Shown: positions 12,328 through 61,836 of the stretch, in pieces
How the letters are laid out: the number at the start of each line of letters is the position of its first letter
How positions within the stretch are numbered: position 1 is the first letter of the stretch
DNA from: a virus
Direction: 5' to 3' (one strand)
IMG/VR virus record: IMGVR_UViG_3300043811_000032
Coordinates: 1-64,000 of that record
DNA length: 64,000 nucleotides
Made by a program: the position numbers and the translations under genes
The notes under the pieces: model-generated
Told to the model about the DNA's origin: nothing
Database searches by the model: none
The model's input: the letters and a program-made list of their open reading frames with translations, nothing else

Positions 12328-12386
12328 AAAAAGAAAGGGACCGCAAGCAGCCACGGGAGTGTGTCCCATGTCCGCCCGCGGTCCCT
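12328..12386 (-). terminator. intrinsic terminator-like hairpin upstream of head genes
   Basis: Minus strand AGGGACCGC-GGGCGG-A-CATGGGA-CACAC-TCCCGTG-G-CTGCTT-GCGGTCCCT then TTCTTTTT. Confidence 0.75.
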
Positions 12387-20430: not shown

Positions 20431-20609
20431 AGGCTGAGGATGGAATCGAACCACCGCCCTCCGGTTTATCAGACCGGTGCTCTTGCGACGGGGCCTACGG
20501 GGTAGCAGACGACCCGGTACCAGGCCCGCCCTTTCAACTTCCGCCGCCCCAAGACCCTACCGAAGCGTCCTCCGGTAAACGGCTCCTTGGCCTGCTGAGC
20601 TACTCAGCC
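20431..20609 (-). tRNA. tRNA-Ile(GAU) interrupted by 103-nt insertion
   Basis: GGCTGAG/CTCAGCC acceptor, TA-GCTC..GAGC D arm, CCGGT-CTGATAA-ACCGG anticodon arm, GGTGG-TTCGATT-CCATC T arm; 103 extra nt between two GAGC copies. Confidence 0.8.
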
Positions 20610-27916: not shown

Positions 27917-29718
27917 TCACATTGCATTAACCGACTGATCAGTTCCATGACAGTCACTGGTGCTCTCCTTCGGTTTGACTCTGTATCGCTGTGACCGCCG
28001 CCCGTGCCACATCGTCTCGATGCCCCACTGAATCGGGTCGCCCTCAGGCTTGGAAATCCGGCTCATCTGCTCAGTAACGTGGGGGAGCAAGTACGGGTAC
28101 TCTTCCTTAATGAACCCCTTGATCTCTTGCCGCAACTTGCTCGGGTCGCGAGCTAACCGCAGCCAGCTCGCTTCCTCCATCGGCCAAGTTACATCACCTA
28201 GCTCAGGATCGTAGTGGTCCCAGCCCTTGCCGTCGTACCCCTTCTGAGCGTGTTCCCAAGCCTTGCTGTACTCCTCACCGAAGAGGCTATGCTTGCACAA
28301 CCCGTCGCTCCTCCAGCAGTAGTTAGCTAGCGACTCGTAGAAGTCTGTGAACGTCTCACCGCTCTGTCTTGCCAGCAGGTTGGTCAGCCCGAACGCATGG
28401 AACGTCAGCATCAGCCAGTTCCACACGTAGACCTCGATGATGTCGTCGCCCGGCAGCGTCCTGGTCCGCCTGACCATCCGCTCGTACTCGCCCGTCGTTT
28501 CGCCCGGCTTGCTGTGGGCCACGAACATCGGGCTGTCGAACGTCTCGATGCCATGCTCGGTCAGGTACGCCGGATCGTTCATCGGGGCGTTGACGAACAC
28601 CGAGCAGTTCCACGTCATGATCGCCGGTGCCGGGTCCAGTGCCGCCAGCGTCTCCCACGTCCGCTTGAAGCTCTCGGCCGTCTCGCCGGGCAGGCCGAGG
28701 ATCAGCTCCGTGTAGCTCCGCAGGCCCTCGGCGTCGAAGCGGTCGATCAGTCCCTTGAAGCTGTCAAACTTCACGTTGCTCCTCTTGACGATCCGCAAGA
28801 CATCGGAGTCGAGGCTCTGCACAGATAAACTCACACCCCGTAGGAGTCCAGATGAGGCGAGTACCCTGGCTATCGGGATGATCCTCTCTGAAGAGGATTT
28901 CACCCATGTCAGCCCCAGTGCCTCGGGATATCCGGTTCGCTGCTTCGTCTCCGCGAGCTTCGTCGCTATCCACTGGTCACGCTCCTGGAACATCCCGAAG
29001 TTGGCGTCACAGCAGTCCACGTACGCGATCTCGTTGTCGCCGAACCACTCGATCTCCGCCTCAAGCCGCTCCTCGGAGAACTTCCGCACCTTGCTCTTCG
29101 TGGCCGATCCCCAGTCGCAGAAGGCTTCCTTCAGGTACAGGCGAACGGACATCCCCGGTTGGATTCCCAGGATGCCACCCACCTGTACCTACTCCTTTCT
29201 GCTAGCTTCCACATCAAGCCTGTTGTGAACGGCGACGGGATGCTTTCGAGGTCTTTGATACGTTCGCGCGGCAGTCCTTTACCTTCTCTCGTTTCGATAC
29301 CAAGGACCAGTCCACCACCTCGCCTGTAATAACTATCGGCTTGGAGAACTTCCGATAATGAAACCTCGCCTTCCCCGTGGACGAGTACATCAACATAGCT
29401 ATGCCGTTCAAAGAAACCTTCGGCATGGTCGGGCACCTCCGGGCCGCCGAACACCACTTTGAGCCGCGGGTTCAGTTCCTTGGCCCGCCTCGCCAGTCGG
29501 TTCGTCGCCCGCCAGTTCCAGCAGTAGCACGAGCACAGCAGCCAGTCGGAGTCGCGGCACGCCTCGGCGTCGGCGTCGATGTTCCGCTTGTCCACGAACG
29601 TCGGCTGCAGGTCCATGTCCACGAACTGCAGCGCGTAGCCGACCACCGTGGCGATGCTGCAGGGCAAGTGCAGCTGGTCGCCGAAGAAGACGCCGTACTG
29701 GGAGGAGGAGACTTTCAT
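27917..29718 (-). CDS. B12-binding radical SAM enzyme interrupted by 11-nt insertion (recoded gene or pseudogene)
   Basis: 5' part SCYCWN..VFGGPEV..HGEGE..WESNRGCPFACT* and 3' part FCDWGS..DANFG..LSVQS..ELILGLPGET join in frame if 29123-29133 is removed. Confidence 0.85.
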
Positions 29719-29721
29719 GCC

Positions 29722-29949
29722 TCACCTTGCAGGTTCAACGATTGGCGTCTGTCCGCGAGATACGATTCGTCTTGCCTGTTGCATTGCCTCTTCCTTGGTC
29801 TCCGCATAAACGGATTGAAGGAAGGTTTTCATATCACCGCGGTTCGGGTTGAAGACCATCTCAAAAACGTTCCACTTCATCAACTTCGACCGGTCACCAT
29901 CAGCCTTTCGCCACACCTCCGGCGACTTGCTCACTTGTACCCAGCTCAT
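29722..29949 (-). CDS. hypothetical protein
   Basis: MSWVQVSK.. with AGGAG RBS. Confidence 0.5.
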   Translation of the reverse strand: MSWVQVSKSPEVWRKADGDRSKLMKWNVFEMVFNPNRGDMKTFLQSVYAETKEEAMQQARRIVSRGQTPIVEPAR

Positions 29950-40894: not shown

Positions 40895-42583
40895 TTAAAC
40901 GGCCCCACCGACTGCAGACCGTGTTCCTGTGTCAGGATGCAGTACGTCACTAGTACCATCACCGTTGCCCTCCAGCAGGTTGCGTTGCAGTCGCTTGCCG
41001 TTCATCGCCTCGACCTGTGCCTTCGCGTCGGTGCCGAACTCCCGCTCGACGAGTGCCAGGTACTCGGGACGGGAGAAGTAGAAATTGTGAGCGTAGTCCC
41101 GGAATCGCAGCACTTGTCCGCTGGTTAGATGCTTCGTGGCCATCGGAGTGCAGTCGCGGCTGTGCTGGCTGAACGCGCTCCACTCCAGACCATGGTGGCT
41201 GGGTGTCTGCTTCCACAGGGCACTGCCTGGATATGGCATAGCGCTGTAGAAGTTGGCCCACGGCGTGTTCAACATCGTCGCCAACTTCAACGTCTGATCC
41301 ATCGACGTGTGGTCGTCCTCGGGTAGACCAAAGATGTAGTTGGCGAGCACGTGAATGCCAGCCGCTTGGATGCGGTCAACGCACTGACGGATCTGATCAT
41401 CGCCACCCTTGTAGTCTTTGTCCACGCCTGCTCGCACGTTGGTCGCTGCCGACTCGATGCCCAGCGCCAGCCAGCGGAAGCCGGCACGACGCATCCGTTC
41501 CAGCAGCCCACGGTCGTTGGCCGTATCCACCCGTGCGTACGCCCATACATTCAAAACTTCAGCTGGATCCTTGATCCGCTGCATGATGGCGTCGCACACG
41601 CCCTCGACGTGGCGCTTGTTCAGGACGAACATCTCGTCGGCGATCTTGATGTTGCCGACACCGTGATCGTAGTGGAGCTTGGCGATCTGCTGGCCAACGT
41701 GCTCGGGGCTCCAGGTGCGGTAGCTGTTGGGCACCTCAGCACCCGGCTTGAACTTGCCGGCCAGCTTCAGTGCGACCTTCTCGCCCTCCTTGAACGGCGA
41801 TTGTATACAGCAGAAGCTGCAGGCGAACGGACAACCAAGACTGGTGTAGATGGCGGCGTAGGGCGAGCGGGTTCTTGTTGCCTTGTTGCCTTTGTACGTT
41901 ATCCCACCAGCATCTTGAGCAAAGTACTCCAATCTATGAGCGACATCCCAAGTAGGTGAGGTCCAGCCGTGCCAATTGTGACAGCGATACTTACCGTAGC
42001 TCTCGATGCCGTGCATCGCCGGCATGTCCGCGTTCACGTCCGTCACGTTCGGGGCGCTGGTCGTCTCGAAGTAGGTCCGTGCGGCGAACGGGCTGGGACC
42101 GTAGAAGCCGATGCCACGGACGTCGTGATGGTTACGCCCTTGGAGCAACTCCGCGATGCTGGTGCAGCCCTCGCCCGTGCACACGTAGTCAGCACCTGAC
42201 TCCCGCAGCGTGCGGTCGGGCAACGCGGCGACGTGTCCGCCTACCATCACCACCTTGGTCGCCTCGTCCCACGCCTTGGCTGAGTAGCTGATCCGGTACG
42301 CCTCGGGCATCGTCTGCGTGCTGGCCGATGGGTTCTGGCCGTAGCACACAACGGCTGTGAGTCGGGGCTTGCGGTCCGCCGCCACCTTGCCGGCGTCACC
42401 AGCGTCCAGCCCCTCGGCGTTGGCATCGAGGATCTCCACGCTGAAGCCCTTGCGACGGACGTACTCGGCGATCAGACCGGCCCACACAGGCGGCTCTATC
42501 GCGGTCAGGTCTTCGGCGAGGTCTTGATAAACTTCTCGCCTGCCTCCCGGTGAGACTAACAACAAGTCGATTTGCTTGGTCAT
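40895..42583 (-). CDS. B12-binding radical SAM enzyme
   Basis: EPPVW, GGHVAALP, GEG, TSLGCPFACSFCC, DEMF, YARVD, LGIES, YIFGLP. Confidence 0.9.
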   Translation of the reverse strand: MTKQIDLLLVSPGGRREVYQDLAEDLTAIEPPVWAGLIAEYVRRKGFSVEILDANAEGLDAGDAGKVAADRKPRLTAVVCYGQNPSASTQTMPEAYRISYSAKAWDEATKVVMVGGHVAALPDRTLRESGADYVCTGEGCTSIAELLQGRNHHDVRGIGFYGPSPFAARTYFETTSAPNVTDVNADMPAMHGIESYGKYRCHNWHGWTSPTWDVAHRLEYFAQDAGGITYKGNKATRTRSPYAAIYTSLGCPFACSFCCIQSPFKEGEKVALKLAGKFKPGAEVPNSYRTWSPEHVGQQIAKLHYDHGVGNIKIADEMFVLNKRHVEGVCDAIMQRIKDPAEVLNVWAYARVDTANDRGLLERMRRAGFRWLALGIESAATNVRAGVDKDYKGGDDQIRQCVDRIQAAGIHVLANYIFGLPEDDHTSMDQTLKLATMLNTPWANFYSAMPYPGSALWKQTPSHHGLEWSAFSQHSRDCTPMATKHLTSGQVLRFRDYAHNFYFSRPEYLALVEREFGTDAKAQVEAMNGKRLQRNLLEGNGDGTSDVLHPDTGTRSAVGGAV

Positions 42584-42828
42584 TCTGATGCTGGCCCGCC
42601 GCAAGAGTAGCGATGCACTTCTACGTCAACACCCAAAGCCTTCAACTCATCGGCTTGTTCCGTCGCCTGTTTCTCGTCGGTATAGGCATAATCTTCCATC
42701 TTGATCGGGTTCTTCACCGTTGGCTGCATTGGTAGAAAAGCCAGTGCCTCACGACTCCACACCAAACTACCATAGCCGATGACGTAGATATCTGGAGGTA
42801 GTTCCTCGCCAATCTTCTCCTCGCTCAC
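42580..42828 (-). CDS. hypothetical protein
   Basis: Coupled ORF. Confidence 0.5.
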   Translation of the reverse strand: MSEEKIGEELPPDIYVIGYGSLVWSREALAFLPMQPTVKNPIKMEDYAYTDEKQATEQADELKALGVDVEVHRYSCGGPASE

Positions 42829-56201: not shown

Positions 56202-56749
56202 CAATAGCTCCTTACTTCCCACACGATCATCCGACGTTGGAGTACGCCACAGTGCACGCGATAGTGCGAGAACTCGACCACGTGGTCCTCGTAGGTATCC
56301 AGCAGCTCCATCAGCCAGTCGTAGTCGCCGGGGTCGAGCGTTGTCCGCAGTAACGAGGTAGCAATTATACCGTAAACCTCGGCCGAGCGGGTGGCTAAAG
56401 CGGGCCGCATCGGCATCGGCAACGTGCTGTAGAGCAAATAGAGCCCGCGATTGCTCTGCATCACCTCCCCTTGCAGCACCGTCGTCGCCGTGGGCGCCAT
56501 CTCGCTGCAGTACCAGTCCTGCGGATCACTCATCCGTAGCCACAGTCCTCGCACCGCGGAGTAGCTCTGGTCATAGTACGTCGCCCCAGCCGCCACCCGA
56601 TTGCGCAGGTGGTAGCTGCCCATCTGGTTAGCCCCACTCTCAAACGCAACGCGGTCGTGCCACGTGTTGGTGCGGTTGCCGAACTCCAGCGCTTGGTATC
56701 GCTGGGTGAAGTCCGTTTTACTTAGCACCGGCGGTCTGCTTGGCCACAT
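56201..56749 (-). CDS. hypothetical protein
   Basis: Coupled ORF between dUMP hydroxymethylase-like gene and primase. Confidence 0.65.
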   Translation of the reverse strand: MWPSRPPVLSKTDFTQRYQALEFGNRTNTWHDRVAFESGANQMGSYHLRNRVAAGATYYDQSYSAVRGLWLRMSDPQDWYCSEMAPTATTVLQGEVMQSNRGLYLLYSTLPMPMRPALATRSAEVYGIIATSLLRTTLDPGDYDWLMELLDTYEDHVVEFSHYRVHCGVLQRRMIVWEVRSY

Positions 56750-57821
56750 AGTTCGCCTCCCGTCTACAGAGCCACTCTACCGCCGCCAGACGCCAGTCAT
56801 CTCCCCAACACATCTGCGCCGCCTTGAGTGCGTGGGTGTAGTTCCTGCTCTTGCGGTGATGGAACGCCATCATCAGCGGCTGGGCGACGTTCCGCAGGAA
56901 GCTGCAGTGGTACGAGCCTGCCAGTGCGTCCTTGCTGTGCCGCTCGACAAATTCACTACACTCCTTGTCGAAGATTTCCAGCTCGTTGGGCGAGAGCAGC
57001 GGCCACTTGAGGTCGCGGTCGGTGTAGAAGTCGTCGTGCTTGGTGTCGGCGAGCCAGACCTCCGGTTTCCAATTGCTTTCGTACACGTGGCCATTCGTCG
57101 TGATCTGGTGGTACTGCCCTACGGCGACGCCGAGGTGCGCGGCGACGTATTCAAGCAAGACGCTGAAGTGTACCGCATTCGCTCCCAGCAGCCCCCAAAT
57201 CAAATCGTTAGAGCGATTGAACACCGTAAGGTTCAGCTGCCGCGGCTCGCCGTGCGTCCAACCCCCCGACATCTGGAACGTCGCGGCGAGGTTGCAGCAG
57301 ACATCGCGGCTACGGTCGATAGCCAATAGGTCCTGATCCACCGTCCACATCTGGAGCACTGCCCGCCGGCTCTCCGGCTTCTCCTTCAAGTGTCGTATGA
57401 TCTGGGCTATCTGGTCCCAAGGCTCTAGGGCGTACCTATCGCCGGCGCTGTCGATCTGGTCATCGGTCAAGGCGTAGCTCTTGCTGTGCCGCCATCGCTT
57501 TCCGTAGCCGCCATTGAACGTCTCGCCGTCGTCCGTGTACTCCTTGAACTGCTTAGCGTAGTAGACGAGCGGGCTTACATCGTTCCGCCCCGCCAACATG
57601 TATAACGCTTCGTAGAGCATCATGAATGGATTCGCGTCCCGAGCCCCATTCATCAAGACTCTTTCACATGGCCGCTCGTACGTCACCGTCAACGGCTCCT
57701 CGATGACCAACACCGACCCGTTGCGGCTAGGGCTGGGTGTAGTTGGAATCGATCCGTCGTGTATGCCCTGCACTATCGTCCTGAAGGCGGTTCCGACGTT
57801 GCGTGTCTTGATCTGTGGCAC
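56718..57821 (-). CDS. thymidylate synthase-family enzyme, dUMP hydroxymethylase-like
   Basis: SRNG, RDANPF..E.L.ML.G, GGYGKRWR, SRRAVLQMW, DVCCN, NRSND..WG..GAN. Confidence 0.85.
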   Translation of the reverse strand: MPQIKTRNVGTAFRTIVQGIHDGSIPTTPSPSRNGSVLVIEEPLTVTYERPCERVLMNGARDANPFMMLYEALYMLAGRNDVSPLVYYAKQFKEYTDDGETFNGGYGKRWRHSKSYALTDDQIDSAGDRYALEPWDQIAQIIRHLKEKPESRRAVLQMWTVDQDLLAIDRSRDVCCNLAATFQMSGGWTHGEPRQLNLTVFNRSNDLIWGLLGANAVHFSVLLEYVAAHLGVAVGQYHQITTNGHVYESNWKPEVWLADTKHDDFYTDRDLKWPLLSPNELEIFDKECSEFVERHSKDALAGSYHCSFLRNVAQPLMMAFHHRKSRNYTHALKAAQMCWGDDWRLAAVEWLCRREANYVAKQTAGAK

Positions 57822-58392
57822 GGTGCTCTCCTTTGTAAAGTTGCTCGAACGCGGCCAAGAACTCTACCTCGCTCTTCTGCCACGTCCACGGTATCCAATA
57901 CTTGACGCTGGCGATCTCCTCTGCCGTCAGCGGCGGGTAGTTCCGCTCCTGGTCTGGCTGCATCAGGGCGACGGTGCAGCCCGGTAGTAACTTGCTCATC
58001 TCGTAGCGGACCAGCACCCGGTCGGCGCGTTCCACTACCTCCGCCGTCTCCTCCGCGCAACCATACTTGCGGTAGATCGTCCTCTGCAGCCGGTCCTCCG
58101 CCGCTCGGTAGCCAGCCATCTCGGGCGTCTTCTTCAGCCACTTCGTCACATCCCCGAGATAGGTCTCACTGGCGTCGTGGAGCAGAGCTTGGAGCGCGTG
58201 GGGCGTGTCCCAGCAGATCCGAGCCGCGTAGACGCTGTGCTGGGCGACGCTGAGCGGCACCTTGGTTGCGCCTGCGAAGCGGTTGCATAGGGCAAGATGG
58301 TGGGCGATGTCCTCGATGACGATGTCCGCCGGCTGGACGTCGAGGGGGTTGATCTTGCGGCCGGTGAACGAGTACATAAAGGGCTGAGTCAT
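57727..58392 (-). CDS. HD-domain (YfbR-like) nucleotide hydrolase
   Basis: IEDIAHHL..NRF.G, SVAQHS, ALLHDASE.YLGD. Confidence 0.85.
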   Translation of the reverse strand: MTQPFMYSFTGRKINPLDVQPADIVIEDIAHHLALCNRFAGATKVPLSVAQHSVYAARICWDTPHALQALLHDASETYLGDVTKWLKKTPEMAGYRAAEDRLQRTIYRKYGCAEETAEVVERADRVLVRYEMSKLLPGCTVALMQPDQERNYPPLTAEEIASVKYWIPWTWQKSEVEFLAAFEQLYKGEHRATDQDTQRRNRLQDDSAGHTRRIDSNYTQP

Positions 58393-58451
58393 CCTGAACT
58401 CCTTATGGATCAACGGGATCGGAAAACTTGGTTCAATCTAGATATTTCGCC

Positions 58452-58479
58452 TTGCTTCAGGCTACAGTCGGCGTATACT
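58452..58479 (+). promoter_or_regulatory. sigma70-like promoter
   Basis: TTGCTT-16 nt-TATACT upstream of GGAG RBS and plus-strand gene. Confidence 0.55.
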
Positions 58480-58533
58480 TTACCAAGGCGACAGGGGGCA
58501 CACCGCCACCCGGCCACCATCTGGAGAACCGCA

Positions 58534-58944
58534 ATGACCGCTACCATGACCGAAGCCCCCGTCAGCACCAATGGCCACACCAGCAGCACCAAGCCGGTTG
58601 CCAAGAAGACTCGCAAGGCCAAGCCTGCCGCCACCAAGACCGAGGCCCAGTACGGCATCGACCGCAGCCACGACCTGCCGTGGCACGACAAGAAGGTTGC
58701 CATCTTCAAGGCACTGAAGGCGCTGGGTGCCACCAAGAGCGGTGACGCCGTGTCGGCCGTGCAGGTTGCTGCCAAGGCCAAGGTGACCGCCCGCGACGTC
58801 CGCCACTACTGCTACCACGCCAAGGCGGCTGGGCTGGTTGACTTGGCCACCATCGAGGACGTTCGCGGCCACGCCTTCTACCTGACCGCCAAGGGCCGCA
58901 ACATCGACCCCGTGCAGGCACAGAAGGCTGAACAGGCCGAGTAA
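58534..58944 (+). CDS. Lys/Ala-rich winged-helix DNA-binding protein
   Basis: GGAG RBS; SAVQVAAKAKV..GLV..FYLTAKG. Confidence 0.75.
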   Translation: MTATMTEAPVSTNGHTSSTKPVAKKTRKAKPAATKTEAQYGIDRSHDLPWHDKKVAIFKALKALGATKSGDAVSAVQVAAKAKVTARDVRHYCYHAKAAGLVDLATIEDVRGHAFYLTAKGRNIDPVQAQKAEQAE

Positions 58945-58971
58945 CGCTGCCACCATTACCAACCCCCTTAC

Positions 58972-59005
58972 AGGCCCGTACAATGGTGTGCGGGCCTTTA
59001 TTGTT
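58972..59005 (+). terminator. hairpin, possible terminator
   Basis: AGGCCCGTAC..GTGCGGGCCT followed by TTATTGTT. Confidence 0.45.
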
Positions 59006-59015
59006 GGAGCCACTT

Positions 59016-59249
59016 ATGGAACTCAACCGCGCTCAGCTCTGCCTGCTCCGCAGTATCAAGTCCACCGGCTTCCCTGCCGAGTTACTGCAGATCTTCCTCG
59101 GTCGCTGCGGTGCCACCGTTGCCGAGTGGCAAGCCCTGCTGGATGCCGACTTGGTTACTGCCGGCAAACGTGCCGAACGTGGTCGCTACGTGATTACCAA
59201 GGCTGGCACCACCGCTTACAACCACCGCCCGAAGCACATCTACTTCTAG
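59016..59249 (+). CDS. small winged-helix-like protein
   Basis: GGAG RBS; L.DADLV..YVITKAG. Confidence 0.55.
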   Translation: MELNRAQLCLLRSIKSTGFPAELLQIFLGRCGATVAEWQALLDADLVTAGKRAERGRYVITKAGTTAYNHRPKHIYF

Positions 59250-60211
59250 CCCATCTCCCACGGCTGCAGTACCGGCAAAGTATAACAACCTTTGCCGAGT
59301 GCTGTGGCTATCGCCCGCTCATCCTCTGCTGTTGGCAGCGGCAGGCTCTTCTTACCCTTCTTGTCCGGTAGCAGCCCCGGTCGATAGCTCAGTGCATCGC
59401 AGCCGGCACACGGACCGAAGTCACGCAGCCCGTGGTACAGCTTGCGCCGTGCCGCTCGCATTGCCGGCCCCTGCCAGATCTGCTCTAGTGTCTGTTGCAC
59501 CACGTTGCCACACTGGTACTCACCGCGCCAGTCGTTGCAGCATACTGCCACGCTACCATCCCAGCGTATGCTCAGCTCCCTGAACGGTTTGGCACACCGC
59601 TTGCCCATCGCGTTGTCGTTCTTGGGGCTGCCGCAGCCCGCGTGGTTGTTCAGACTGGCGTGGGTGCCCTTGGTCGCCTCGGCGATGTCCTGCACGATGA
59701 CCAGGTCGTGCTCGTCTGGCTTGCGGCGCCGGTGCGGGTTGCCCGACTTGTCTGCTGGGTACATCGTCGGCTCGTGCTTGCCGCTGTACCGCTGCAGGAT
59801 CTTGGGCACGATTTGCACCCCTTCGTAGGCATCCAAGGCCAGCACGTTCAGGCTCTGCAGGGCAGTGTCGATTGTCTCCGTCGGTGTCCTCAGGAACCCC
59901 GCCCCGTTGCTGGTCATCATCAGGTGAGCACGCTTGGGCAGTCGTCGCCGGAACGTGCCAAGTATCTCCAGCATCTGTGGGTTAGCACTAGGCTCACCGT
60001 GCATAGCAAACTCGATGCGTGGCAGCCAATTGTCCTGCTTGAGCAAGTACACAATCCGCTCCGCTAGCAACACAGTCATGAACTTGTAGTCGTTGTCCTT
60101 ACCGCGGATGCCGTTTAACCCACAGAACTGACAGCGTAGCTGACACCCTTCAGTGAGTTCTACTTGTAGGGCGAACGGCGGTTCCTGTCGCTCAGGATTG
60201 TGAAGAGGCAT
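59246..60211 (-). CDS. radical SAM/SPASM-twitch domain protein
   Basis: CQLRCQFC, HGEP, TSNG, CAKPF..IRWDG.V..CCND..GN..CAGC. Confidence 0.9.
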   Translation of the reverse strand: MPLHNPERQEPPFALQVELTEGCQLRCQFCGLNGIRGKDNDYKFMTVLLAERIVYLLKQDNWLPRIEFAMHGEPSANPQMLEILGTFRRRLPKRAHLMMTSNGAGFLRTPTETIDTALQSLNVLALDAYEGVQIVPKILQRYSGKHEPTMYPADKSGNPHRRRKPDEHDLVIVQDIAEATKGTHASLNNHAGCGSPKNDNAMGKRCAKPFRELSIRWDGSVAVCCNDWRGEYQCGNVVQQTLEQIWQGPAMRAARRKLYHGLRDFGPCAGCDALSYRPGLLPDKKGKKSLPLPTAEDERAIATALGKGCYTLPVLQPWEMG

Positions 60212-60983
60212 ATGCTTTGCTCCAGTAGACAACCACGTCGGTACGCTCCTCCATCCCCTGCCAGTTCTTCGTCTGCTTCTTGACCACCTTGACGAACCCG
60301 GGATGTAGCTCGGCCAGCCGCTCGGCTGCTTGGCTCTGCATCGCTGTTGTCCGGTACTGACTGCATCCGCCTGGCAGATTGCTGCCGCCTTGGTTCCAGC
60401 ACCATCGGTAGATCATCGCGTTGGGCAAGCCCTTGCGCAGCATCTGCAGGGTCAGATCGAAGTCCTCCATAACCGGCAACCGCCCTGCCTCCACACCGGC
60501 TTGCCGCACCTGCTCCAAGTCATACATGTAGGTATTGAACATGCGACGACACTCGGCCACGTCTTCGGTCTCTCGGTTGTTCCCCTGCCGTGCCGACAGT
60601 CCCACATGAGCGTACTTGTCTAGCAACAATCGCCAGTACTCAAACAGCTCGGTGATCATCTTGCTCTGCGGTTCCAGACTTACCAGCTTGGGAGACGCCA
60701 TATCCGGTCGGTACGCGAACGTCATGTCGTCGTCGATCATCGCTAGGTAGCGAGTCTGACACGTCTCCATCAAGTACTTCCTAGTGCCGCTGATGCCCTT
60801 GACGGTGCTTGGGACATACCACAACGGTGCCAGCGCTCCCCATGACCTGTACGACGGCGTCTCGTTGTTGGGAATAGCCAGCTTGGTGACCCTGAGCAGC
60901 TCATTGGGCAACTGCTCCAAGGTTGTCTGCTTGGACGATCTGCCCGAGCTGGGGATCACAATGGTAACGTCTTCAAGCCCCAT
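60192..60983 (-). CDS. TET-associated (GREB1/TAGT-like) glycosyltransferase
   Basis: IVIPSSGR, GI..TR, MIDDD, EDFDLTLQ.L..G, GGCS.YRT, HP. Confidence 0.75.
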   Translation of the reverse strand: MGLEDVTIVIPSSGRSSKQTTLEQLPNELLRVTKLAIPNNETPSYRSWGALAPLWYVPSTVKGISGTRKYLMETCQTRYLAMIDDDMTFAYRPDMASPKLVSLEPQSKMITELFEYWRLLLDKYAHVGLSARQGNNRETEDVAECRRMFNTYMYDLEQVRQAGVEAGRLPVMEDFDLTLQMLRKGLPNAMIYRWCWNQGGSNLPGGCSQYRTTAMQSQAAERLAELHPGFVKVVKKQTKNWQGMEERTDVVVYWSKAYASSQS

Positions 60984-61836
60984 TGTACTTCCTCTTCAGG
61001 TGCCCATCCCTACTTAGTGCCCGCTCCATCTTATCGTACTCACATAATGAATGTTCAACCTCGCGGGCCTCGAACGGCGGCATCTTGGGCAGTTGCTTGG
61101 TCAACACGCGCAGCAACCGCTGGCTCTCCTCTTGCCACAGATCACGGGACACCGGTTCATTCAGCCCACGCCCTAGCAATCGGTTCAGCCCACGCTTGGC
61201 ACCTGGCCCTGGATTGGACCACGTCAGCTTGTCTGTGGCGTGCTCCAGCAGTGTCGTGTACCGCAGGTCGCACACCACTTCGTACGCCATGAAGCCGCTG
61301 CCGCCCAGCCCTAGATACTGTTTGAGTCGGCTGTGTGCCTGCTGCATCGTCCGCCACTTGGCAGCATCCGCCAGCAGGCTTGGCAGGTCATCCCACACTG
61401 GCTGGATGTAGTCGTCACACACACGGTCGATCTTGGGCTTGGTGCTGCCGCTGTTGCTGATGTTGAACGCCCCCGTGAACACACGGTCCAACTTGCGCAG
61501 GTGTTGCTTGGCGTAGCCGAGCCGCCAATTGGTCAGCAGATCGTGCTCCAGCAGCAGCTCGCCGGTCGGTATCCAGTTAAACCACCGGAAGCACACGGTA
61601 GCGAACAGCACCGCAGGGTCGTCCCGCATCGGCTCACGCACATGCTCTCTGAACCATGCCGTCACCTTGTCGTTCTCGCGGTATGGATTGGTGAAGAATG
61701 TCAAACGCAACACGGCATCATCTGTCCACGGCTTGGGCTTGCCGGCTCGCCGCTTAAGATAGATCTGGTGGCGTTCACGCACCCAGTAGATGAACCGGTC
61801 GAGCGGGCTCAGCTTGATTACTTCTGACGTTATCAT
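60973..61836 (-). CDS. aGPT-Pplase1 / amino acid:DNA transferase, paralog 1
   Basis: ERHQIY..R..G.P.PWTDD, FTNPYRE.D, FRWFN, FMAYEVVCD, GPG..RGL, EHSLCEYDK. Confidence 0.85.
   Translation of the reverse strand: MITSEVIKLSPLDRFIYWVRERHQIYLKRRAGKPKPWTDDAVLRLTFFTNPYRENDKVTAWFREHVREPMRDDPAVLFATVCFRWFNWIPTGELLLEHDLLTNWRLGYAKQHLRKLDRVFTGAFNISNSGSTKPKIDRVCDDYIQPVWDDLPSLLADAAKWRTMQQAHSRLKQYLGLGGSGFMAYEVVCDLRYTTLLEHATDKLTWSNPGPGAKRGLNRLLGRGLNEPVSRDLWQEESQRLLRVLTKQLPKMPPFEAREVEHSLCEYDKMERALSRDGHLKRKYNGA

Follow-up and report, generated by a model that had tools for sequence, protein, structure and literature searches.

An 11-nucleotide insert splits a phage cobalamin-dependent radical SAM gene within its cluster motif, at the foot of an mRNA hairpin

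The gene described here lies on the minus strand of IMGVR_UViG_3300043811_000032, a metagenome-assembled viral genome from soil in the IMG/VR database. This phage genome has 98,691 bp, carries direct terminal repeats and is rated complete. We analysed its first 64 kb (64,000 nucleotides, the window), and all coordinates are positions in this window. An 11-nucleotide (nt) insert, TGAAGGAAGCC (29123–29133), breaks the frame of a gene predicted to encode a cobalamin (B12)-dependent radical S-adenosylmethionine (SAM) methylase. The break lies inside the CxxxCxxC motif of the [4Fe-4S] cluster. The insert contains a stop codon, a Shine-Dalgarno (SD)-like AGGAAG and a GAAG-GAAG tandem. Plain loss or knock-down is the simplest reading. 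We tentatively favour it, as the likeliest single account: a real lesion that abolishes or strongly reduces function, at a structural indel hot spot.

The minus strand reads TGT (29139–29137), ACC (29136–29134), the insert (29133–29123), TTC (29122–29120) and TGC (29119–29117). The insert is flanked by CCT on both sides, so its placement may slide by up to 3 nt. The upstream open reading frame (ORF; 29131–29718, minus strand, 195 residues) comprises the B12-binding domain (PF02310, E 3.5e-10), a linker, strand β1 and the first two cluster cysteines. Its C terminus is NRGCPFACT (WESNRGCPFACT), followed by TGA at 29133–29131. The downstream coding part (27917–29122, minus strand, 401 residues, PF04055) is in the −1 frame relative to the upstream ORF. 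It opens with FCDWGSATKSK (FCDWGSATKSKVRKF…), in which FCDWG holds the third cluster cysteine, and continues through the radical SAM barrel and a TokK-like C-terminal domain to position 27917. There are no further stops in either half of the gene.

The two halves abut to the residue on each of three independent references. On TokK (PDB ID: 7kdx) they cover residues 56–211 and then 212–483 (E 4e-28 and 2e-49; 1.6e-49 for the downstream half). On CysS (PDB ID: 9n1b) the first half ends at residue 202 and the second starts at 203. On the NCBIfam profile NF033712 (KedN5 family) they cover 63–209 and then 210–369. This contiguity is exact only when the 11 nt are skipped. The original prediction for this locus had placed a stop-containing 11-nt insert exactly within CxxxCxxC and held that its removal rejoins a B12 half and a radical SAM half, each otherwise free of stops. 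It had also noted a UGA right after ACC and a near-cognate GCC at the end of the gap. The frames and the alignments with homologs confirm all of this, to the residue. The observation is exact and far beyond chance.

From its sequence, the broken gene is assigned to the class B (cobalamin-dependent) radical SAM enzymes of the TokK/ThnK/CysS/KedN5 type. It has a B12-binding domain, a radical SAM core and homology to TokK and CysS, and its CxxxCxxC is complete only across the gap. With the C-methyltransferases of this group (7kdx, 9n1b and NF033712) it shares the domain order, the motif WE(T/S)NRGCPxxCxFCDWG, the long C-terminal domain and, here, a location in a glycan cluster. Unlike them, it is split over two frames. 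NF033712 is its best NCBIfam match, yet the score is under the cut-off of that family, so it is a relative at the subfamily level only. The flanking genes encode glycosyltransferases and a SAM methyltransferase (Pfam), and the broken gene sits within the sugar-tailoring cluster of the phage. A second B12 radical SAM enzyme (40895–42604, minus strand, 569 residues, PF02310 and PF04055) is intact and belongs to the same sugar cluster. It is not a close paralog (about 25% local identity only). A non-exhaustive screen of the window for overlapping frames with high GC content at third codon positions, with Pfam run on the best candidates, found no second split gene.

The insert is unlikely in the extreme to be an assembly or sequencing artefact, even though the phage genome is a metagenome-assembled viral contig. 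A Logan contig of sequencing run X1 (13,458 bp, depth 67.7) spans 28021–29750 with 0 differences and 0 gaps, insert included. Run X1 is the probable source sample, and the contig is a second assembly of the same reads rather than an independent sample. Because a different assembler reproduces the insert, an assembler quirk is ruled out. An 11-nt non-repeat insertion is also atypical of Illumina errors, and the motif is likewise broken in relatives that come from other assemblies. Short pieces identical to the phage occur in runs X2 and X3, none of them spanning the junction. Contigs of distant homologs in X3 and X4 run from the C-T of the motif directly into F-C without the insert (loose ends at 29122 and 29124). 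In runs X4–X7, which are labelled RNA-Seq, only distant homologs are present. No other copy of the 11-mer occurs in the phage genome, which rules out a dispersed mobile element of the byp type.

Intact homologs are single proteins of about 640 residues. In 81 of the 82 homologs with DNA (from IMG/VR and metagenome scans), WE(T/S)NRGCP(F/Y)xCT(F/Y)CDWGS lies in one frame. The sole exception has a point change, and its frame is unbroken. This marine sequence (L046:2880–3060, contig MDSW01087372.1) reads WETHRGYPYLCTFCDWGS, with the first cluster cysteine changed to Tyr (TAT) in an otherwise intact gene of the 640-residue type. Every close relative (74–77% identity) is broken inside CxxxCxxC like the phage gene, and more than 200 more distant homologs are intact. 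A tree of the C-terminal halves groups the broken genes in one clade (support 1.0) with a long stem, and about 0.45 substitutions per site separate the phage from the ENA group. Its sister group is the intact P0006/L002/P0008.

The close relatives are ENA contigs known as proteins only, and their lesions are deduced from the shifted-frame protein sequences. Their N-terminal pieces (199–210 residues, 74% identity) read through the motif into the wrong frame. Those of P0123, P0125 (on 8 contigs), P0127 and P0128 end in NRGCPF followed by CLHVLRLGKCYQEQGAEVRRAAA and a stop. This tail corresponds to the +1-frame reading of ACTFCDWGSATKSKVRKFDERRLE, which would imply one extra base after the first Phe codon. 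P0129 ends in NRGCPFACTF followed by LRLGLGHEEQGAEVPRAAA and a stop. Here one extra base would lie at the Thr/Phe junction, the same junction that holds the 11 nt in the phage. Both tails are +1-frame readings of ACTFCDWGSATKSKVRKF…, as produced by single-base insertions at two sites. Judged from the shifted KCYQ and LGHE, the true-frame GSATK is encoded with AGT GCT ACC in one lineage and with TCG GCC ACG in the other lineage and in the phage. The C-terminal pieces (P0004, P0005 and their cluster mates; 379–384 residues, 76–77% identity) all start with MRKFDE. This start corresponds to a GTG in KVRKF, 12 codons past FCDWGSATKSK. A comparison with homologs had been proposed along with the original prediction; it shows that the break is shared by the close relatives, while the 11-nt gap itself is not, and 1-nt lesions are found there instead.

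Two further observations were made on these relatives. P0126 (ENA, 2 contigs, 210 residues) follows the shifted frame of the P0123 type for six codons (CLHVLR) and then continues with 27 residues that have no match in the window. This suggests a rearrangement or deletion at the motif, yet another variant. The C-terminal halves P0004, P0005, P0131 and P0133 are mosaics of two allele types, with at least two segments (residues ~38–80 and the last ~130). The broken genes therefore recombine freely within their population.

No broken relative turned up in the other collections. Degenerate patterns allowing 1–12 extra bases at either site had no match in IMG/VR, where the intact motif pattern occurs on at least 120 contigs. 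Scans of IMG/VR and of JGI/ENA metagenomes returned only relatives of at most 57% identity, all intact. The phage GenBank collection gave neither a DNA nor a protein match. Among GTDB genomes there was no relative; nor did the junction, with 0–12 nt allowed between its flanks, match anything spacer-like or a prophage there. With this junction search empty, an origin of the insert in escape from CRISPR (clustered regularly interspaced short palindromic repeats) has no support.

The break is located at the foot of a stable mRNA hairpin. A 111-nt segment around it folds into an interrupted hairpin of 33 bp, with six G·U pairs (29117–29202, minus strand). The predicted energy is −51.6 kcal/mol (z −4.0), and none of 200 shuffled sequences was equally stable. 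In the upper stem (29191–29166 with 29158–29132), the codons of RYRWVASW pair with those of GCPFACT and with the UG of the stop. The upper hairpin alone (29191–29134, 58 nt) ends exactly at ACC and reaches −36.4 kcal/mol (z −5.15). The insert supplies the internal loop of 7 nt, AAGGAAG (29131–29125). In the lower stem (29202–29194 with 29124–29117), the CC of the insert and TTCTGC pair with the upstream GCAGAAAGG. Only 11 of 1000 synonymous resamplings were as stable. The region is more extreme than its counterpart in all 82 homologs (median z −0.14). Windows containing the hairpin rank 4th, 8th and 13th of 4929 on that strand of the genome, which places it among the three or four most structured loci. 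The antisense strand forms just the 9-bp base stem and a few scattered pairs, and this much weaker fold points to selection on the mRNA. No Rfam family matched the hairpin. The strongest minus-strand hairpin of the genome lies elsewhere (12336–12386, with arms of 23 nt, a loop of 5 nt and about −55 kcal/mol per 111-nt window) and is probably an intergenic terminator.

Two smaller elements of the original prediction fared less well. The proposed hairpin GAAGG-AAG-CCTTC is present, though weak: it reaches −4.5 kcal/mol, with z from −1.2 to −1.45 and 20–38 of 200 shuffles as good. It is absent from the best fold of the 111-nt region, where other pairings replace it. The SD-like AGGAAG is present in the gap, but its GGA (29129–29127) stands 1 nt before GCC (29125) and not at 5–7 nt.

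Signals for an internal start of the downstream half are found within the upstream ORF. AAAGGAG, an SD of the phage type (29192–29198, minus strand), is partly paired in the hairpin, with 29124–29117. It is made of the rare codons GAA-AGG-AGT, which account for 15%, 10% and 10% of their codon families. Many genes of the phage share the layout AAGGAG, 5–9 nt and ATG or GTG. A GTG in the downstream frame (29180–29182, minus strand) follows the SD by 9 nt and is paired with 29141–29143. In its frame a TAG precedes it by two codons. The predicted product has 421 residues (MGGILG…KEA-FCDWG). The 411-residue gene call P0003 in the protein collection starts at an ATG in the same frame (29150–29152, minus strand), 19 nt before the stop.

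In the reading that we favour, a real and fixed 11-nt insertion would break a TokK/KedN5-like methylase gene between the second and third cysteines of the [4Fe-4S] motif. Under ordinary decoding, ribosomes would stop at the UGA and release a 195-residue B12-domain fragment with two of the three cysteines. The rest would be made only as a separate chain, from the ribosome-binding site (RBS) and GTG at 29182 or from the ATG at 29152, and would carry one cysteine. The canonical enzyme would then not be made, or only in traces through translational errors. We infer that the lesion arose at a local hot spot for indels, exactly where an unusually stable hairpin or quasi-palindrome has its foot. The DNA of the cysteine motif is itself a quasi-repeat (CCG TTC GCC TGY / ACS TTC TGC). 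Such a hot spot would account for the different small insertions that the closest relatives have within the same stretch of eight codons. The three different lesions there, in two frames, are explained more easily by a hot spot than by a single evolved signal for recoding. At the DNA level the hairpin reaches significance on either strand (z −2.6 and −2.4). Only two changes at conserved positions are private to the phage lineage, both of them conservative, and this would suit a young lesion. Finally, the intact enzyme at 40895–42604 makes some redundancy conceivable. Template switching on the hairpin was considered as a simple origin of the insert and rejected; it would give …CCTGTACC-TACTCCTT-TCTGC, which differs from the actual insert.

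Other evidence weighs against this reading. We aligned 83 intact homologs and classed the columns by conservation. The phage halves and those of the relatives differ at 7% of the well-conserved columns and at 44–47% of the variable ones (chi-square p 6e-5 to 1e-12, and about 1e-11 for substitutions within the clade). P0004 and P0005 show the same pattern between them. At columns conserved to at least 95%, the phage protein deviates at nine; seven of these deviations are in common with the broken relatives, and the two private ones are T to S and I to M. Of the 79 family-invariant positions of the C-terminal half, 77 are kept. In the GSATK segment just past the break, the deduced differences between lineages are synonymous only. 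No second stop or frameshift was found in any half of any lineage. Nearly all divergence within the clade hence arose under purifying selection on both halves. This implies either parallel and very recent breaks in every lineage or an old break that is compatible with function. If the gene is dead, all lineages must have died very recently and in parallel. The break spans a whole monophyletic clade, and the closest intact protein among 5.8 billion clusters has only 57–58% identity, with none above 58%. All three lesions are insertions that need a forward movement of the ribosome. An RBS-like sequence and a GTG built from rare codons would have no purpose in an intact gene; together with a hairpin at the RNA level they look like an adaptation to the broken state, and plain loss leaves both as coincidences. 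The original prediction had named intact relatives and relaxed selection on the downstream half as signs against itself. The close relatives are all broken, and relaxed selection is not seen. Of the marks of a frameshift pseudogene, disruption of the frame relative to intact homologs is present; relaxed constraint or secondary lesions, and intact orthologs in close relatives, are absent.

The original prediction had likened the locus to ribosomal bypassing in T4 gene 60, and this likeness does not hold. Taking the features of such cassettes from Manning & Atkins (bioRxiv 10.1101/2022.08.31.505936), we find two of them. The stop UGA (29133–29131) directly follows the candidate take-off codon ACC (Thr, 29134–29136, minus strand), the last sense codon, and a 5′ stem-loop (29191–29134) lies upstream of take-off. 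Most of the testable features fail, namely codon match, SD spacing, A-site hairpin, endonuclease and conservation of the gap. The only near-cognate landing codon in frame is GCC (Ala, 29125–29123), which would form a G·U pair at codon position 1. No ACC or ACU landing codon restores the frame, and take-off and landing are not read by one tRNA. The GAAGG-AAG-CCUUC stem-loop that would have to act at the A site is insignificant. No HNH, GIY-YIG or other endonuclease was found in the flanking ORFs (Pfam, PHROGs). The phage locus is not a member of the gene 60-type bypass family. Simpler frameshifts do not rescue the gene. No slippery X XXY YYZ heptamer precedes the stop, and a +1 shift leads into the wrong frame. 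The product of a −1 shift would be CPFACTLKEAFC (Cx3Cx6C), and pattern scans of IMG/VR showed no variant with an in-frame insert of 3–12 nt. Decoding of UGA as sense would not help, as the frame is still wrong. ARAGORN found no tRNA in the whole window, so a suppressor tRNA or one with an expanded anticodon offers no explanation. Rfam calls a tRNA at 20431–20495 (minus strand, 34.6 bits, full model).

In view of these points, three alternatives to plain loss keep considerable weight. One proposal, which we regard as possible but doubtful, holds that the enzyme is produced only through re-zipping of the 23-bp stem, by an 11-nt hop here and a 1-nt move in the relatives, so that the frame break would be a heritable throttle on expression; a variant of it is a coupled enzyme of two chains. 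Taken alone, forward recoding driven by the upstream hairpin, with the break as a built-in attenuator of expression rather than a dead gene, seems to us unlikely. While ACC occupies the P site and UGA, a slow stop, the A site, the ribosome would still enclose the final 9–11 nt of the 3′ arm of the hairpin. Zipping of the stem behind the ribosome would pull the mRNA about 11 nt forward, and peptidyl-tRNA-Thr would re-pair with GCC. Decoding would resume at UUC UGC and give, at a low level, the exact CPFACTFCDWG enzyme, with the junction peptide GCPFACTFCDWGSATK. In the relatives the same pull would cause a +1 shift on extended Phe codons (UUU_U, UUU_C). The end of the upper hairpin at the take-off codon, a feature that the original prediction missed, fits this scheme, as does the stop directly after that codon. 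A forward move of about 11 nt would allow the last 9–11 stem pairs, which are the perfect Watson–Crick part, to form and would bring GCC into the P site; judging from the pair list, the complete stem would then stand 6 nt behind the new P-site codon. There is precedent for such forces. Stable refolding upstream hairpins promote +1 frameshifting, and weaken −1 frameshifting, of 70S ribosomes at a UGA site (Huang, Cho & Chang 2018, PMC6321510), and exit-side mRNA pairing has been suggested to drive the forward bypassing of gene 60 (Wills et al., bioRxiv 10.1101/2024.12.09.627546). The clade-wide break, the purifying selection on both halves and the fact that all lesions are insertions also favour recoding. 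However, the landing codon is non-cognate, and the SD-like element is 1 nt rather than 5–7 nt before it. Three lesions in two frames would need different events. The UUU_U and UUU_C sites of the relatives are deduced only, and TTC makes up 90% of the Phe codons of the phage. Past these shift sites, the 0 frame has common codons rather than slow ones.

A translationally coupled split gene, with two chains made at about 1:1 and assembling, is in our view distinctly unlikely. Ribosomes on the last ~13 codons of the upstream ORF would melt the hairpin and expose the SD and GTG (29198–29180). Translational coupling of the MS2 type, in which a sequestered start is opened by melting of a hairpin, is the classic layout. 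At the sequence level the phage locus would match it, with SD and GTG sequestered opposite the end of the upstream ORF, a phage-type RBS AAAGGAGT with 9 nt to the GTG, rare codons and an in-frame stop two codons upstream. Both halves are conserved, down to the invariant positions of the C-terminal half. The junction need only stop one chain and start another, which would leave its sequence free to vary among lineages. The [4Fe-4S] cluster would then be held by two cysteines of one chain and one of the other, or the pair would have a non-catalytic role. We know of no radical SAM enzyme in which the CxxxCxxC ligands are split between chains, and this counts against the idea. The position of the split would also vary from lineage to lineage (1+2 cysteines for the P0123 type, 2+1 in the phage), junk tails (20 residues here, 23 in the relatives) would sit at the active site, and selection for pairing in the stem could have produced the SD as a side effect. 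A reversible on-off (contingency) locus is more improbable still. Hairpin and quasi-repeat would make the motif hypermutable, OFF alleles would dominate the sampled populations, and rare ON alleles would carry the lineage and keep both halves selected. Several lesions at one spot without decay elsewhere, in a clade sampled entirely OFF, agree with this. The CCT direct repeats flanking the 11 nt would allow precise loss, and the lesions of the relatives may be T-run expansions. Yet the motif has no simple-sequence repeat, precise loss of 11 nt should be rare, and no assembly contains an intact allele. At 68×, the insert allele is the only one in the Logan contigs of X1, though contigs drop rare variants. 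The original prediction had offered recoding or a switch on one side and a recent mutation or assembly error on the other. This range brackets the likely truth, with assembly error now unlikely in view of the Logan contig.

The locus can be compared with several known systems. With the T4 gene 60/mobA cassette it has in common a short non-coding gap in a phage gene, a stop right after the last sense codon, an SD-like purine tract in the gap and an exact protein when the gap is skipped. Both also have, upstream of take-off, a stem-loop that could drive ribosomes forward as it re-forms. It differs in the size of the gap, 11 nt here against 50 nt there; the shortest natural gap of this type known is 20 nt (Manning & Atkins, bioRxiv 10.1101/2022.08.31.505936). 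It also has no homing endonuclease and no CTE/NTE cassette, its ACC and GCC are unmatched and its SD spacing is wrong. “Savior” or problem indels and pseudo-pseudogenes (Atkins et al. 2016, PMC5009743) likewise combine a frame-breaking indel with an otherwise well-kept gene. In both, translation without a shift yields a useless product, and a little of the shifted one could be enough. Unlike those genes, the phage locus has no homopolymer run or known shift-prone site, and a move of 11 nt is needed, not 1. The prfB type of +1 frameshifting with upstream refolding hairpins (PMC6321510) is similar in that a stable duplex right behind a ribosome stalled on UGA favours forward slippage. In prfB, however, the shift is by 1 nt, on CUU_U, and the SD lies 3 nt upstream; here +1 re-pairing is impossible and the +1 frame is wrong. 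Frameshift pseudogenes at quasi-palindrome or hairpin hot spots are alike in that the indel lies exactly where a long imperfect inverted repeat has its base, and relatives have different ones in that place. In contrast to these, no lineage shows further decay, no close relative is intact and the insert is not what template switching predicts.

Elsewhere in the window, a minus-strand region at 56721–60995 encodes a thymidylate-synthase-like protein (56721–57863), a radical SAM/SPASM protein (59249–60412) and a TET-associated glycosyltransferase (PF20691, 60195–60995). It looks, from these predicted functions, like a DNA-hypermodification module, and the phage may glycosylate modified bases.

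A break across a whole clade with purifying selection on both halves is unusual under either outcome. If the gene is dead, it would show, as a clean case from nature, how a hairpin or quasi-repeat can act as a lineage-specific hot spot for indels within an auxiliary gene of a phage. It is also a warning for annotation, as the B12 and radical SAM domains are called as two genes. If the enzyme is made by hopping, this would be the shortest natural bypass known, with no matched landing codon and an upstream hairpin as the driver, and the force of exit-side pairing would be directly testable with a 110-nt cassette. If it is made as two chains, it would be the first radical SAM enzyme whose cluster ligands are split between them.

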